Sequence record: MK165087.1
Source of the DNA: Escherichia phage BRET
Strand: one strand, 5' to 3'
Length of the DNA: 59,550 bases
The translations under genes were made by a program, and so were the position numbers. The notes beneath the pieces were generated by a model. The model ran no database searches and was not told where the DNA came from. It saw nothing but the letters and a program-made list of their open reading frames with translations. Positions 3,790 through 55,244 of the stretch are shown here, one piece after another (the stretch's first letter is position 1; each line of letters opens with the position of its first letter).

Positions 3790-4668
3790 ATGAACAAATA
3801 TCACATTCATCTAGCGGTAGCTTATTCCGCTGGCTTCTTCCAGTCCATGCCTCGTTTTGGTGCATTGGAACTTGAATATACTTCTGAGGATGAAATCCCG
3901 GAAAACGCGCGTGAGTATTATTCCCAAGAAGGCGATAAGTGGATCCTCACTGGTGTAAAGGGTGGTGGCAAACAGAATATTGACAGGCTGCAATCCGCAC
4001 TTGAAAAAGAGCGCAACGATCATAAGGCGGTCAAGAGTAAGTTAAGTAAGCTGAACGGACGTGATATTGACGAACTCTTGCAGCGCGACGCTGAATATGA
4101 AGAGCTTAAACTACGTGCGGATAAAGTTGATGATGAAAAGCTGGAGCAGATCATTAACGTGCGCATCCGTAACAAGCTAACTCCGCTTGAGCGTGAACGT
4201 GACGAGCTGAAAAACAAACTTTCTACCTATGAGAAGCAAGTAGAAGAGCTGACCACAAAAGAGAAGAACCGCATCGTTAAGACCGCTCTCAGCAAGGCTG
4301 CAATGTCTGCTAAAGTGATCACGGAAGCTATTGACGACGTGGAACTGATTGGCTCTCGTTTGTTCGAGCTCACCGAAGACGGTCAGGTTGTTACCCGCGA
4401 CGGCGTTGGTGTAACCCCGGGCATCACTCCAGAAATGTGGTTACAGGACATTCAGGATAAGAAACCTCACTGGTTCCCTGGAAACGTTGGCGGGGGTGCT
4501 GGTGGCTCCCGTACTCCTGGCGCGGCTGGTAAGAACCCGTGGAGTGCTGAGGGTTGGAACCTTACTGAACAGGGTAAAATTCTTCGTGAAAATCCTGAAA
4601 AAGCAGGCCGTCTGGCAGCCATGGCTGGCGTGGACTTGAAGCGTCCAGTACGTCCAGTTAAAAAATAA
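3790..4668 (+). CDS. putative scaffolding protein
   Basis: Charged coiled-coil-like protein with Gly-rich basic C-terminus between portal and capsid; alternative starts at 3763 (GTG) and 3778. Confidence 0.55.
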   Translation: MNKYHIHLAVAYSAGFFQSMPRFGALELEYTSEDEIPENAREYYSQEGDKWILTGVKGGGKQNIDRLQSALEKERNDHKAVKSKLSKLNGRDIDELLQRDAEYEELKLRADKVDDEKLEQIINVRIRNKLTPLERERDELKNKLSTYEKQVEELTTKEKNRIVKTALSKAAMSAKVITEAIDDVELIGSRLFELTEDGQVVTRDGVGVTPGITPEMWLQDIQDKKPHWFPGNVGGGAGGSRTPGAAGKNPWSAEGWNLTEQGKILRENPEKAGRLAAMAGVDLKRPVRPVKK

Positions 4669-28229: not shown

Positions 28230-28298
28230 TGTTCACCTAACAAATAAGCGCCCGTAGGCGCTTATTATATTAAAGATAATGTATGATTCGCAAATCAG

Positions 28299-50543: not shown

Positions 50544-51164
50544 TTACGCTCCAAACTGATCAATGTATTCAATGAGCTCTTGCAATTCTTGCTGTAACTG
50601 CACATTACCACTATTATTCGTCTGAAGTCTAACGAGGCGCTCCTTGATATGTGCAATGTGGTTAGCACCCATCCGACGCTTCTGTACATCGCACCAGTGA
50701 ACAATACCGTCTTCAATATACGCACGACGCGCTTTACCACGCGGATATCGCAACGGCCGAACTTCACACTTATCGCCCACCCACTTAAAGCCCAGGATCA
50801 TAACAGCGTTGCCTTCCGTATCAGGACACACGTCAAAGCAACTGTTGAACCCTTTACTGTGCATGTACTTGTCAAGCGGAATCACACAATCCACATCTAA
50901 CAACCAGTACCCGAAGTAAATGTCAACAGTAAACATCATCCCCAACATCGGAGCCGCCCAGCACATGTACATCCGCCCGTCATCCAACTTCTTGACCGCA
51001 TTCGGCCTCAACACGAGGCCAGCCGCCTTCCACGCTTTGACCACATTGCTTATACTGTCTTTGTGCTGTTCTAATATGGTTACCGCTTTGGCATACATTT
51101 GTTCGTCGTAACCGAACATTTCCTGTACGTGTGCGTGCGTTATTTCAATATTACGATTGCGCAT
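50544..51164 (-). CDS. hypothetical protein (first gene of a leftward operon)
   Basis: 206-aa ORF with GGTGAGG RBS; sits just downstream of the AT-rich repeat region. Confidence 0.45.
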   Translation of the reverse strand: MRNRNIEITHAHVQEMFGYDEQMYAKAVTILEQHKDSISNVVKAWKAAGLVLRPNAVKKLDDGRMYMCWAAPMLGMMFTVDIYFGYWLLDVDCVIPLDKYMHSKGFNSCFDVCPDTEGNAVMILGFKWVGDKCEVRPLRYPRGKARRAYIEDGIVHWCDVQKRRMGANHIAHIKERLVRLQTNNSGNVQLQQELQELIEYIDQFGA

Positions 51165-51227
51165 AACCTCACCCTTGACTAAATAAAATCGATTGATTTT
51201 GAAATTCAGTTGCCAAGTTTTAATTTA

Positions 51228-51374
51228 TGCAAAGTTTTTGCTATTTGCAATTGTGATGTTTTGCGGTGTTTGTATGTGCAAAGTTTTTGCGTTTGCAAAA
51301 AATTACAACAGTCTGAAGGTGAGAAATTGCAAATTTATAAAGATCGGTGAAAAAATGCACAATTTATAAAGATT
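51228..51374. repeat. dyad-symmetric repeated elements in AT-rich non-coding region
   Basis: Two copies of TGCAAAGTTTTTGC(t/g)(a/t)TTTGCAA about 49 bp apart, plus two copies of (T)GCA(A/C)AATTTATAAAGAT about 30 bp apart. Confidence 0.4.
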
Positions 51375-51854
51375 CAGCAACATACGAAACCGCGAAGCGA
51401 AGTGTATGAAAAATAAGGGAAAATTTCGAGGATTGGGGGGTTTGTATGGATTTATATTATTTATAAAGGGGTCTCGTGGGGGTCGTCAGTAGACAACTCA
51501 AAAATAAAAAATCTTTATAAAATTTATATAAATACACACATACACACACTTTTACCTTATTTTTCATGCACTTACCCCCTTTCATTTCGTACATTAGGCG
51601 ACAATATACGAGCAATATAAGAAATATTTGTTGCGCAACGACTGTGTGTTTTCTAACCAATCGAAAGATTGCTTTATATACGTCCGCGCGTCTAACACAA
51701 AAGAAAAGTAGATTGCAAGCGATTTTTGCTGAGGTAACTCTCGAAGTGAAAGCGATTCGCGAGTTTGAAATTTTGTAGCCCGAAAACGATTCTATTTTAT
51801 GGTATAAATGCCGGATTTTTCGGGCAAAGCCGGCTTTTCGGTGAGGTTGGGTGG

Positions 51855-52030
51855 CTGGGATCGGGGTAGCGAGTCGCCCATAAGGCGAAAATAGCCGCGA
51901 AAACGGGGCACACAGCGCGATTAAACGGTTGGATCGGTGTAAGGGTGGCGGTGAGGGGCGAAAATGCCGCAAAATCGCGTACAGGGAAGCAGGGAGTGGA
52001 TCGCTGTAAGGGCGTGTAAGGCGACTGAAT
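51855..52030. repeat. GC-rich degenerate tandem repeat with GATC cores
   Basis: Three units starting GGATCG(G/C)(G/T)GTA(A/G) spaced about 70 bp apart; two are followed 26 nt later by GGCGAAAAT(a)GCCGC. Confidence 0.4.
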
Positions 52031-52142
52031 TGGAGTCAATGGTAATGTACGGAAGAGGGATTCAGGTTCTTAGAGCGCGAATGGTGGAGTTATGGGTGAG
52101 GAATATGTGGTCAGCAGGGTAACGCGGGAGGTGGTGCGGGTA

Positions 52143-52181
52143 CAAAAACGAAAACGCCCCGTTGGACTTCAACAGGGCGCG
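52143..52181 (-). terminator. rho-independent terminator (minus strand)
   Basis: On the minus strand GCGCCCTGTTG-aagtc-CAACGGGGCG followed by TTTTCGTTTTT, just downstream of the gene ending at 52204. Confidence 0.5.
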
Positions 52182-52203
52182 GATTATATAATGCAGTTAG
52201 AAG

Positions 52204-52452
52204 TTATTTACTAGTTAATAGTACCGCCCAGGTATTATCTGGAAGCGTACCAACTCCGAGTATCTTAAGCTGAAGCGACTGGTTCTGCATATTGTAGTTG
52301 TCCAGTAGCTCCTGGGCCGCGGCAGCGGCGTTCGCTTCACCGTTGAGGTTGTAGTCGTTACTCGTTACCGCGCACATACCGAGACCGACAGCTTTAAAGC
52401 GCATACCTTTCGTCTGAGTCGGTGCTAGTGCTTTGACATGGATAGCGTTCAT
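52204..52452 (-). CDS. hypothetical protein (small early paralog family A)
   Basis: 82-aa ORF; sequence-related to 52983..53237. Confidence 0.45.
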   Translation of the reverse strand: MNAIHVKALAPTQTKGMRFKAVGLGMCAVTSNDYNLNGEANAAAAAQELLDNYNMQNQSLQLKILGVGTLPDNTWAVLLTSK

Positions 52453-52481
52453 ATTATTTATCTCCGTTACAATTTGAAAGG

Positions 52482-52739
52482 TTAGCAGTTTTTTAACAGG
52501 TTAATGAAGCCCACCAGCGTGGACGCGGTTGCAACCAGGCGGCCCATAGTATGCAGTTCCGCGTAAACTTTACCGTCGTTGAACACCGTTAAATAAACGT
52601 TAAGACCATTGCAACGGACGCGATATTTGCGCGCGTTATTATTAAAAGTTTCCAATTCCGCAGTGATAGTTGCAAGGTTGACTATACGTTTTTCAATAAT
52701 GCGACGAGTGATCATGGACTGGTTTAATACTGTAGACAT
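52482..52739 (-). CDS. hypothetical protein (small early paralog family B)
   Basis: 85-aa ORF; N-terminal SMITRRIIEKR shared with 54356..54661. Confidence 0.45.
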   Translation of the reverse strand: MSTVLNQSMITRRIIEKRIVNLATITAELETFNNNARKYRVRCNGLNVYLTVFNDGKVYAELHTMGRLVATASTLVGFINLLKNC

Positions 52740-52807
52740 AATAATTTCCTCTGTTAATTATGCGAAGTGCATATTATTGCCCACTGTTACTATGGGCAAT
52801 GTATATG

Positions 52808-52972
52808 TCACTCAGCGGACACATATTCTAACGCTTCTGATAGTGTAGCGAAGTGACCATCACTCACCAGATTAATAGCGTACTCAAGTTGATCGCGGGT
52901 CAGGTTGCGAAACTTGTTGCGGATGTGATAGCAACGACCGCGATAAATAACCTGGAAATAGTTGCGTTCCAT
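52808..52972 (-). CDS. hypothetical small protein
   Basis: Internal ATG of track ORF 52808..53050, placed to avoid overlap with the upstream gene. Confidence 0.3.
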   Translation of the reverse strand: MERNYFQVIYRGRCYHIRNKFRNLTRDQLEYAINLVSDGHFATLSEALEYVSAE

Positions 52973-52982
52973 AATTATCCCC

Positions 52983-53237
52983 TTATGCAACGATGAACGC
53001 GTAACCACTTTGATCCGGGAGCTCACCACCAGCGAGAATCTCAAATTCAACGCCCGCTTTAGCGTTAAACTTATTGATCAGCTCCTCCGCTGCGGCGCGA
53101 TGGTTGCCGTAAACGCCCAGATCGTCACGCCATGTGATAGTTACAGAACCGTTCCAGCCCGTTGCTTTTACGCGCGGAGCGCGAGCGGCAGTTGGGTTCA
53201 CGAATTTGGTAATAATAGCTTGAGCCATGATAGTCAC
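52983..53237 (-). CDS. hypothetical protein (small early paralog family A)
   Basis: 84-aa ORF; shares PT...R.KA.G / AAA.EL / ILG.G.LPD pattern with 52204..52452. Confidence 0.45.
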   Translation of the reverse strand: MTIMAQAIITKFVNPTAARAPRVKATGWNGSVTITWRDDLGVYGNHRAAAEELINKFNAKAGVEFEILAGGELPDQSGYAFIVA

Positions 53238-53263
53238 TCCTTAAATTATGTTAACGTTAATAT

Positions 53264-53539
53264 TCACTCAGCGCGAAGGCCCATCGGGTGAATAGTTTGC
53301 TTCTGAAATTCAGCATACGCTTCAGCGATCAGCTTGTCCCAGTATTCTTTAACTTCCGGATAGTTACTGGAAGTGAATACTACACCATTCCGAGTGTGGA
53401 TCTCGTACTGGCAGCACGTTTCCTCTTCGGTCCACAGATCAAACTCGTGGCGGTGGTACAGGTAGAAGGACTGACGGTTCAACACAACTCGAGCCATTTC
53501 AACGAAAGAATTCTGGTTAGGTTTACGCATGATAATCAC
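53264..53539 (-). CDS. hypothetical protein
   Basis: 91-aa ORF. Confidence 0.4.
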   Translation of the reverse strand: MIIMRKPNQNSFVEMARVVLNRQSFYLYHRHEFDLWTEEETCCQYEIHTRNGVVFTSSNYPEVKEYWDKLIAEAYAEFQKQTIHPMGLRAE

Positions 53540-53721
53540 TCCGGTAAAATTACAGTCACGTTAATATTTGCAATGCGAGCGCACTCGGTGAAACCTTTTA
53601 CATAAGCATCCATTTCGTCATAGGATGCGAAAGTCACGTCCGGGACTGGTCCGTTGTTAATATTCACGCAATATTCGTGTTCGTCCAGGTCAACCCAACA
53701 AGTTAGAACGATAGTTTCCAT
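53536..53721 (-). CDS. hypothetical small protein
   Basis: Internal ATG (METIVLTCW...) of track ORF 53536..53754. Confidence 0.35.
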   Translation of the reverse strand: METIVLTCWVDLDEHEYCVNINNGPVPDVTFASYDEMDAYVKGFTECARIANINVTVILPE

Positions 53722-53799
53722 ATTATTTACCCTCCGTATAATACAGACCCGCAACTATTGGAGCACCGAATACCAAGAACGCTAATAAGTAGAACATAA

Positions 53800-54294
53800 T
53801 TAATTGCCCCCTTTATTGTTGAGCCCGTGGAATTTGCGCCATGCGTAGAATTCAATCGTTGCGTTATTAATATTCCAACTATTAGCTTTCGCAAGGTCAC
53901 GGACGTTACCAATAGTTGGCACACCATTAGGCAACATATTATCCAGAGCGTTCCAAACGTCTGCACATTTACCTTTAATTGGGCGACGGACCCCGTTGCG
54001 CGTTTCGCTGCGCGTTTTACCTTTGACGGGAGCGACCGGAGCTGGTTGTGTGGTCACTTCCACGACAGTTGCTTTATCAGCTTCTACCAGATCGTTAGCT
54101 GCCTTATTAACCGCGCTTTCGCTGTACCAGTAGCGGCCACCGTCTTCGTGCGGTTCCTGGTGAATAAAGCTATTAGCTGTCGCAGTGTCCACATCCAGAA
54201 CCTTTTTTAAGGCACGGCGAGCGTTAGACATAGTGGCGAAGAAGCGAGCGTCTTTTGCTACGCGAGTGATAGTTGCCATTGTGATTATCTCCAT
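53800..54294 (-). CDS. hypothetical protein
   Basis: About 160-aa ORF; start may be 54279. Confidence 0.4.
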   Translation of the reverse strand: MEIITMATITRVAKDARFFATMSNARRALKKVLDVDTATANSFIHQEPHEDGGRYWYSESAVNKAANDLVEADKATVVEVTTQPAPVAPVKGKTRSETRNGVRRPIKGKCADVWNALDNMLPNGVPTIGNVRDLAKANSWNINNATIEFYAWRKFHGLNNKGGN

Positions 54295-54355
54295 GTTGAT
54301 CTAGCGGATTGCTAGTGGGAGCCCACTGTAACAATGGGCAACCATTAACACGCTA

Positions 54356-54661
54356 TTATTGTTGAATAGCCTTAGCTATCATTGCAATAAAGCAGAACAC
54401 AGACCAAAGGCTATTCGCTTGACATACTGGTCGACCGTACATTACGCTATAAGAGCTGACAGTGCCGTTCTCGTTAATGCGAATATATAACGCGGTGCTG
54501 GAATACTTTTCGTTTCCCGGGAGCATTACTAAATACTCGTCGTAATCCCAGTCCCCGTTGACTTTTTCCGCAGTAAGGCCCAGCTGATACAGGCGCTTGC
54601 CAATAATACGTTTGGTGATCATGGACTGGGACATAGAACGCGGTAAGTAGATAATGGACAT
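54356..54661 (-). CDS. hypothetical protein (small early paralog family B)
   Basis: 101-aa ORF with AAGGGAGA RBS; N-terminal SMITKRIIGKR. Confidence 0.45.
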   Translation of the reverse strand: MSIIYLPRSMSQSMITKRIIGKRLYQLGLTAEKVNGDWDYDEYLVMLPGNEKYSSTALYIRINENGTVSSYSVMYGRPVCQANSLWSVFCFIAMIAKAIQQ

Positions 54662-54846
54662 AATGCAATCTCCCTTCGGGTGAAGCGGGCGCGGAACCCG
54701 TGTCCCGCTTTAAAACCCCCTTTACCCCACGCGTTTATAATATGACAGCAGGGTATCAGATGCAACTATTATCTGCATTATTTTAGAACTTTTTTAGTTG
54801 TGTTTCATAATAATAACATCCGGGACTATACGGTAGATGGTGTGCC

Positions 54847-54915
54847 GGAAATACCAGGTGGCGCGAGTGTGCTGAAAATACCAGGTAACAGCACGCGCAG
54901 GAAATACCAGGTAGC
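54847..54915. repeat. iteron-like direct repeats (3 x AAATACCAGGT at 26-bp period)
   Basis: Copies at about 54850, 54876 and 54902 in the intergenic region between divergent operons. Confidence 0.5.
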
Positions 54916-55215
54916 ACATACATAGACAGCACATAGTGGGCAGGTGGATAGTAACAGATGTAATTATACTGGACGGTATAGTATAGTCATGTAATAGATA
55001 ACATACTAATCAAATAAAAAATAATAACGCGTGCAACAATAAACAACGTTACAATAGAGCGCGCGACAGTCACATGACGTAACAATCACCTCACTGACGA
55101 TCACGGGACGTTATAGTAACGCCGCGGGGCGGCTCTTAGATCTCTGCCAAGGATTCATCTTTTGTAGATTATCTCGTCACTAGACACTTTATATCCCCAC
55201 CTCACCTGCCCTATA

Positions 55216-55244
55216 TTGTTCGTATAAAGTTAATTCCGTATATA
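55216..55244 (+). promoter_or_regulatory. candidate sigma70-type early promoter
   Basis: TTGTTC-N17-TATATA upstream of the rightward operon starting at 55418. Confidence 0.25.

Follow-up and report, generated by a model that had tools for sequence, protein, structure and literature searches.

The cosB site of phage lambda consists of the gpNu1 boxes R3-R2-R1 plus a bend and lies just inside the left end, and the pacL and pacR sites of phage SPP1 are bent arms bound by the small terminase subunit G1P. In phage T7 the left end has arrays of short repeats but no genes, and the phiOL promoter lies ~400 bp in from it; the T7 terminal repeat measures 160 bp and is also gene-free, and T7 uses promoters for its own RNA polymerase. 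To our knowledge, the recognition and cutting of ends in phages with long terminal repeats are poorly understood, and we know of nothing published on the subject for the Queuovirinae. Here we examine a segment (positions 51780–52140) of Escherichia phage BRET (MK165087; Nonagvirus, Queuovirinae), for which the window analyzed is the complete record of 59,550 bp. We take the DNA of BRET and other Nonagvirus phages to carry deazaguanine-modified G, with presumably about one quarter of the G residues in the genome replaced by 7-deazaguanine derivatives.

The segment sits in a gene-free gap of ~1 kb (51165–52203). It is a real, conserved, non-coding feature, and its earlier description was inaccurate. 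A first-pass annotation had labeled it a GATC-cored tandem repeat and offered three readings: a structured RNA, a GATC-rich replication origin, or a packaging-related site. The motifs are present where they were placed, but the tandem array and the GATC label do not stand; of the readings, the first is disfavored and the second, as an origin based on GATC and Dam, is unsupported. The packaging-related reading is the best supported of the three, on grounds other than those originally given, namely helical phasing and position at the virion end. In all likelihood it is an element of the DNA that acts in cis and is connected with the genome end, by a mechanism that we infer below.

Helical phasing and strand composition

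The eight 335-nt windows with the strongest 10–11-bp periodicity of WW (W = A or T) genome-wide all fall within 51601–52135, with a top power of 4.05 compared to a genome mean of 0.59 (standard deviation, sd, 0.42). The periodicity of G is also at its genome maximum here (2.31 vs. 0.29, sd 0.21), in antiphase to WW, and none of 1000 doublet-preserving shuffles reached the observed value of either. The predicted curved-DNA core (51783–51975) contains nine A/T tracts, each 4 nt or longer and each falling within 0.52–0.76 of a 10.5-bp turn; the two GGCGAAAAT(A)GCCGC motifs are among these tracts. Genome-maximal 10.5-bp phasing occurs here together with 16-nt boxes present two to three times; in sites of the cosB/pac type, bent or wrappable DNA is likewise combined with repeated recognition boxes. 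No IHF site was found in the gap.

The phasing metric was calibrated on lambda (1941 windows), where attP ranked 1st, ori 11th, and cos 57th, and on SPP1 (1761 windows), where the 330 bp beside the pac cut ranked 1st. By these ranks, the metric picks out sites where DNA wraps into nucleoprotein complexes.

The segment is also strongly asymmetric between strands. On the + strand, the G-rich, purine-rich tract at 51840–52139 contains 126 G, 44 C, 75 A, and 55 T (67% purine), and no other 300-nt window in the genome reaches its GC skew of +0.48. The first-pass contrast between a GC-rich segment and an AT-rich background is borne out (GC content 0.54–0.58 vs. 0.32–0.37 immediately to the left). 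G-runs are ~7-fold enriched, with G4Hunter scores up to 1.3–1.6, and no canonical G-quadruplex motif (G3, loops of 1–7) occurs in the segment; deazaguanine would oppose quadruplex formation in virion DNA.

Position relative to the genome ends

Exact direct terminal repeats are present in the GenBank entries for two sister phages, with lengths of 3363 bp in HdSG1 (MK373795) and 3367 bp in HdK1 (MK373794), and we mapped these repeats onto the BRET window. The predicted left repeat boundary and virion end fall at 51457–51468 (51459/51460 by HdSG1, 51462/51463 by HdK1), coinciding with the third copy of a ATTTATAAAG box. The right repeat boundary and right virion end would lie at 55128–55143 (..GGCGGCTC/TTAGATC.., 55135/55136), a junction identical at the ends of the HdSG1 and HdK1 repeats and at position 28,243 of phage 9g. 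Sequencing reads of 9g pile up at 28,243, from which a physical end and a terminal repeat of unknown size were inferred (Kulikov et al., PMC4276943). By homology, BRET would have a terminal repeat of ~3.7 kb at ~51460–55135. With the end placed from these relatives at ~51460, the segment therefore lies 320–680 bp in from the left end of the DNA as packaged, adjoining the cut as cosB/pac sites do; the 9g pile-up corroborates the right end, and for BRET the placement is homology-based.

The 9g authors proposed that the early genes enter the cell first (PMC4276943). Because the opposite, early-gene end would be the one to enter first, the left end would be packaged first, with packaging proceeding rightwards. 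The left terminus itself lies in the A+T-rich center of an imperfect 54-nt inverted repeat (51400–51573) whose left arm is G-rich and whose right arm is C-rich, such that the 100-nt GC skew is +0.66 at 51392–51491 and −0.85 at 51494–51593. No motifs were found to be shared with the right boundary of the terminal repeat. The terminal repeat contains leftward promoter candidates and an operon of small genes, a makeup similar to that of the pre-early terminal repeats in T5 or SPO1.

Sequence constraint and sister lineages

As the first-pass annotation had stated, the segment is gene-free: none of 12 annotated relatives has a gene call across 51780–52140, and a check for a conserved open reading frame (ORF) was negative. 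Close relatives differ by 1-nt indels at 51839, 51954/5, 52057, and 52125, and the four ORFs found in six frames match no PHROG family, which together show the segment to be non-coding. A search of the window for tRNA and tmRNA returned nothing at the segment. It has no similarity to E. coli genomes or plasmids, and a host or plasmid source was rejected.

Similarity to the segment is restricted to Nonagvirus records (n = 17, 91–96.5% identity). Mean pairwise diversity among these 17 sequences is 0.074 at 51810–51975 and 0.092 at 51976–52140, below the values for third codon positions of the two flanking genes (0.166 and 0.239), and the segment is therefore under sequence constraint. Alleles of the neighboring 82-aa gene are only ~65% identical where the non-coding segment stays 91–96% identical. 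Elsewhere in the gap, the most conserved part is A+T-rich and spans the first 140 bp inside the terminus (51480–51600; diversity 0.013–0.046). It is followed by an 85-bp hypervariable cassette (51601–51685) with unrelated alternative alleles among Nonagvirus (diversity ~0.31), and then by blocks at 51711–51800 that are kept across five lineages, GATTGCAAGCGATT (51711–51724) and AAAACGATTCTATTTTAT (51783–51800); diversity at 51760–51799 is 0.027.

Three scans of viral contigs and one metagenome scan, many of whose matches were judged to be due to chance, yielded only Nonagvirus and four sister lineages, the latter recovered via the neighboring gene and the conserved blocks: a Klebsiella-type group (L015–17 and L070), L033, L075, and L051/52. 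With BRET these lineages share only short blocks (GATTGCAAGCGATT, AAAACGATTCTATTTTAT, CGAAAATA, TCGCTGTAA, GTGGTC, and the terminator to the right of the segment). Neither the GGATC cores nor the −10-like element is present in them, and their primary sequence has diverged to ~60–75% identity with many indels. The genome-extreme phasing and skew, however, are conserved across lineages. Skew in the 330 nt before the terminator is kept at 0.31–0.46 in five lineages, and the gap holds the top helical-period signal of the locus in L015–17, L070, L033, L075, L051/52, and phage JenP1. Because both properties persist despite this divergence, selection has preserved composition and phase rather than the exact sequence.

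A proposed terminus-linked complex

Our preferred reading, held tentatively, is that the segment serves as curved, architectural DNA on which a nucleoprotein complex linked to the terminus would form, probably with terminase; a location just within the left end is suggestive of a region where terminase assembles, of the cosB or pac kind. Phased A/T tracts alternating with G runs over ~200–350 bp would make the DNA intrinsically curved, with a preferred bend direction, and the curved DNA would wrap around or along a protein oligomer. The likeliest partner would be the small terminase subunit (TerS, encoded at 1–552), for which the TGGATCG(G/C)TGTAAGGG cores are candidate recognition boxes. Such a complex would position terminase for a site-specific cut at ~51460, from which packaging would run rightwards. 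TerS is 97–100% identical within Nonagvirus and 61% identical in a lineage with different boxes, a co-variation compatible with a terminase role, although not diagnostic of it.

Several observations weigh against this reading. The strongest phasing lies 320–515 bp from the cut, a greater distance than separates cosB or the SPP1 pac arms from their cuts, and the same metric flags lambda ori, as curved DNA marks origins too. Phasing is weak in Seuratvirus, and in phage Iggy it is not at the left end; Iggy and Seurat were both considered as architectural analogs and set aside as weak or different. Placement of the left terminus relies on the database entries for two sister phages and not on reads of BRET itself, and searches with TerS found neither a Pfam family nor a solved structure. 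In phage JenP1 (L014), which is viable, a homing-endonuclease gene stands in place of the right half of the segment (51975–52200), which removes the third repeat unit and the terminator; homology to BRET ends at ~51973. Since JenP1 is viable without the right half, only the left half can be essential, and the phased core at 51783–51975 is exactly the part that JenP1 retains. Lastly, curvature needs no strand asymmetry, and the skew of +0.48 requires a second explanation.

We therefore propose an added role, the simplest being that of a Rho-loading backstop. Because RNA reading through from the right would be untranslated, with 42% C and 15% G, the tract probably doubles as a place for Rho to load behind the terminator, which would keep transcription off the terminus. 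In its fullest form, which we offer as a speculation with the balance against it, the proposal would be of a dual-purpose, sequence-programmed curve of ~200–350 bp inside the first-packaged end in Nonagvirus phages and their relatives, whose DNA nucleates a terminase or initiator complex and whose C-rich RNA loads Rho. If so, the complex would define the ends of the 3.7-kb terminal repeat and Rho would shield the complex from transcription. We know of no description of a packaging signal of such size, cut distance, and strand asymmetry for any terminal-repeat siphophage.

A defined end-processing or origin element would serve the engineering and correct genome linearization of these widely isolated coliphages, and would account for 1 kb of conserved but seemingly “empty” DNA, which annotators have passed over. 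It would also offer a test case for sequence-encoded curvature in a deazaguanine-modified genome, and scanning for helical phasing could be a cheap general flag for such sites.

A possible replication origin

The main rival, which we nonetheless consider unlikely, is a replication origin, where a phage or host initiator would assemble on the curved DNA, the nearby repeats, and an A+T-rich stretch (51494–51600) and open the duplex; the G-rich strand might in addition stabilize a primer RNA or R-loop. The rank of lambda ori by the phasing metric (11 of 1941) is in keeping with this, and near the early genes there is only one large non-coding region besides the gap. Sister lineages also point in this direction. 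In Klebsiella phage vB_Kpn2-P2 (L015, ~4100–4230), as well as in L016, L017, and L070, eight tandem, near-palindromic units of 14–15 bp (GCTAAC..TTAG; GCTAAC-N-ATTAG-NNN) are inserted exactly after AAAACGATTCTATTTTAT, which is the left edge of the segment. These units are missing from Nonagvirus and look like protein-binding iterons. The equivalent gap in Seuratvirus has many CCCTATA repeats beside a stretch of 17–23% GC, an arrangement that looks like iterons plus an unwinding element.

The BRET segment, however, has no regular iteron array, no initiator gene was identified, and a primer RNA would have a single promoter candidate, a weak one that lacks conservation. The sign of the GC skew does flip at ~51170, but the flip coincides with a gene boundary and far exceeds the skews that replication produces. 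The site also coincides with an experimentally supported genome end, which points to packaging. As for an origin based on GATC and Dam, the 1-kb gap contains 4 copies of GATC vs. 3.2 expected, and each GATC core is mutated in some Nonagvirus phages and absent from the sister lineages; with GATC neither enriched nor conserved, this version is unsupported.

Transcription across the segment

Leftward is the direction of the only certain transcription here. A minus-strand intrinsic terminator, claimed by the first-pass annotation and also annotated in HdSG1, HdK1, and SP8, lies at 52154–52180 and ends the leftward small-gene operon. It appears strong, with an 11-bp stem and a U-tract on the minus strand only, and its stem shows compensatory G–C to A–U changes in distant relatives. 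The segment could be a transcription insulator, a Rho-utilization (rut) zone behind the terminator that stops leftward read-through before it reaches the terminus/pac and the early genes, and that a phage antiterminator may overcome. As a replacement for the terminus-linked complex, this is distinctly improbable in our view.

Several features favor the insulator. The leftward RNA, untranslated and C-rich as given above over 300 nt, has a YC-dinucleotide density of 0.245, the genome maximum on either strand (mean 0.101, sd 0.027), and would be weakly structured (−60 kcal/mol over 336 nt, z-score −1.2). It would have the makeup of a Rho terminator: untranslated, C-rich, G-poor, and weakly folded over at least 80 nt downstream of a gene. 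Placement directly after the terminator is conserved, as is skew of the same sense in all five lineages; the YC maximum recurs in the Klebsiella-type loci, and composition is better kept than sequence, as rut sites would predict. On the other hand, no YC maximum is found in L033 or Seurat, the intrinsic terminator already looks strong, and insulation leaves unexplained both the 10.5-bp antiphase of WW and G and the conserved blocks and repeated boxes. It can also coexist with the terminus-linked complex instead of replacing it. Neither a scan nor inspection by eye found a leftward sigma-70 promoter inside the segment. A lambda-like boxA/nut candidate, CGCTCTAA on the minus strand at ~52070, was rejected as not conserved.

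Rightward transcription would start from the extended −10-like element reported in the first-pass annotation, which is indeed present (TGGTATAAA, 51800–51808, + strand). The resulting non-coding RNA, whether a small RNA, an antisense regulator of terminal-repeat genes, or a protein sponge, is an explanation to which we give little credence. All Nonagvirus sequences have the element unchanged, a similar TGGTA(C/T)AAT is used by related homing-endonuclease cassettes, and the inverted repeat TACAG..CTGTA recurs in several lineages; the RNA would also be G-rich and C-poor, hence Rho-resistant. Yet the element has no −35, ends in A instead of the conserved final T, and was not reported by a promoter scan, and matches to its pattern (TGNTATAAW) are at chance level genome-wide (7 vs. 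6.8 expected). Because it is absent outside Nonagvirus, including from the four sister lineages that keep the segment, it constitutes weak evidence for a promoter.

The RNA itself fares no better. Its hairpin has no + strand U-tract, and no + strand terminator was found in the segment. The + strand minimum-free-energy z-scores (−0.34 and −0.89) are no better than those of shuffles, and Rfam gave no match at gathering or relaxed thresholds. RNAalifold assigned a covariation term of −0.73 kcal/mol to 12 Nonagvirus sequences, with double changes in only 3 of 104 pairs. When four distant sequences are included there are 20 double changes vs. 11 in column shuffles, a count that includes the terminator and in which the cross-genus changes all reflect a single split between two clades. 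A structured non-coding RNA is disfavored. A CsrA sponge, considered for the many GGA motifs, was rejected: their count equals the expectation from composition (our own estimate), and they are not kept in the Klebsiella-type homologs.

A functionless spacer or decayed gene is very improbable. In its favor, the segment has been given no function by annotators, its purine-rich + strand looks like a coding strand whose composition could be a relic, and half of it is dispensable in JenP1; against it, diversity is less than half that of neighboring third codon positions, phasing and skew are kept across diverged lineages, and neither PHROG matches to the six-frame ORFs nor similarity to E. coli genomes or plasmids were found.

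Repeat units within the segment

Three degenerate units of ~70 bp occupy 51858–52012 on the + strand, with cores GGATCGGGGTAGCGAG (51858), TGGATCGGTGTAAGGG (51930), and TGGATCGCTGTAAGGG (51997). The first-pass annotation had noted starts of the form GGATCG(G/C)(G/T)GTA, and these are confirmed at 51858, 51931, and 51998 (spacings of 73 and 67), as is the 26-nt spacing it described: GGCGAAAATAGCCGC at 51884 and GGCGAAAATGCCGC at 51957 each lie exactly 26 nt after a unit start. As a tandem repeat, however, the units do not hold up. Tandem Repeats Finder (minimum score 30) reports none in 51780–52140, and the whole ~70-nt units are only 63%, 69%, and 58% identical, compared to 52–56% (sd 4) for shuffled units. 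The clearly repeated part is limited to a 16-nt core, TGGATCG(G/C)TGTAAGGG, present twice at 15/16 identity.

Other features of the gap and terminal repeat

To its left the gap is bounded by a minus-strand gene encoding 206 aa (50544–51164), and to its right by the terminator, beyond which lies the leftward operon of small genes of unassigned function. Two 29-bp tandem units, GGTGAAAAAATGCACAATTTATAAAGATC, each with a ATTTATAAAG box, are found at 51318–51373 (Tandem Repeats Finder score 91), outside the terminal repeat and to the immediate left of the terminus. The box occurs in 3 copies genome-wide, all in the gap, vs. 0.18 expected, and there is one inverted copy. On the minus strand the 29-bp units read TTGTGC-17-TATAAA; together with three copies of TGCAAAGTTTT(TGC) at 51211–51290, just upstream of the 206-aa gene, they may form the promoter and operator of the next early transcription unit.

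Overlapping the loop of the terminator is a + strand element at 52163–52192 (TGGACT-18-TATAAT, 10/12 match), which is directed into the 3′ end of the operon in the terminal repeat. The sequence TGTATAATGCAGTTAG in this region is kept in all five lineages, and the element may be an antisense promoter or simply terminator context. Within the terminal repeat, two paralogous small genes (phrog_3199, function unassigned) lie at 52204–52452 and 52983–53237. The first of these, encoding 82 aa, has two alleles that are ~65% identical among phages otherwise ~93% identical.

The homing-endonuclease gene of JenP1 (2195–2799, + strand, HNH type) has its own TGGTA(C/T)AAT extended −10 and is placed between the G-rich segment and the 82-aa gene. 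A similar insertion is found in L051 and L052; insertion into the gap is recurrent.

Three direct copies of (G)AAATACCAGGT, ~26 bp apart (54848–54859, 54876–54886, and 54901–54912), look like operators; they lie in a divergent promoter region just inside the right terminal-repeat boundary. The 9g record (KJ419279) appears to keep its original assembly coordinates, with the physical end mid-record in a divergent promoter region, while the 9g paper says that the map was re-linearized at the physical end (PMC4276943).

The E. coli Chi sequence GCTGGTGG occurs 6 times in the window vs. 1.3 expected, a number reached by none of 100 shuffles (52511–52518 and 53026–53033 on the minus strand, 4498, 8319, 16131, and 49683). 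The two minus-strand copies are within the terminal repeat, 1.05 and 1.57 kb from the left end. By textbook RecBCD polarity they are oriented for RecBCD entering at the left end. A Chi-like protective role for the 51780–52140 segment was rejected, as the segment has no Chi and its G-rich strand is wrongly oriented for the near end. Clusters of high G4Hunter score are found near both terminal-repeat boundaries (51415–51493, 54695–54741, and 55186–55219); G runs occupy the + strand in the cluster by the left end and the minus strand in those by the right end, and so are always on the strand with its 5′ end at the terminus.

Comparison with known systems

The BRET locus shares some features with each of several described systems. 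Like P1 pac and the GATC clusters of oriC, it has three GATC boxes in non-coding DNA near a packaging cut, but GATC in BRET is neither enriched nor conserved, and the genome has deazaguanine-modified G. Like T7, BRET is a terminal-repeat phage in which a region without genes, but with repeats and an orphan promoter-like element, lies a few hundred bp in from the left end, although this region has no sequence relation to the T7 left end.

With rut sites such as lambda tR1 (rutA/rutB), BRET has in common a tract downstream of an operon end, between early transcription units, whose RNA would be untranslated, C-rich, G-poor, and weakly structured. Unlike rut sites, the tract follows a strong intrinsic terminator, is far longer (~300 nt), and has conserved blocks and DNA helical phasing that rut function does not need. 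The phased A/T tracts give top-ranking periodicity, as do those of ori-lambda and the attP intasome, and iteron arrays adjoin the segment in sister lineages of BRET, as at ori-lambda. In BRET, by contrast, the site has neither an iteron array nor a recognized initiator and is at a genome end, and the phage is without an integrase.

Compared to lambda cosB and the SPP1 pac arms, the phasing in BRET is long (~200–350 bp) and distant from the cut (320–680 bp), and the tract is strongly G/C strand-skewed and has no IHF consensus. BRET also makes 3.7-kb direct terminal repeats rather than cohesive ends or headful cuts, and lambda cos itself is only 57th on the phasing metric. Even so, like these two sites, the BRET segment is non-coding DNA inside or beside a site-specific terminase cut, with a few short repeated boxes and helically phased DNA that is predicted to bend, and, like the SPP1 pac neighborhood, it is the top phasing window of its own genome.

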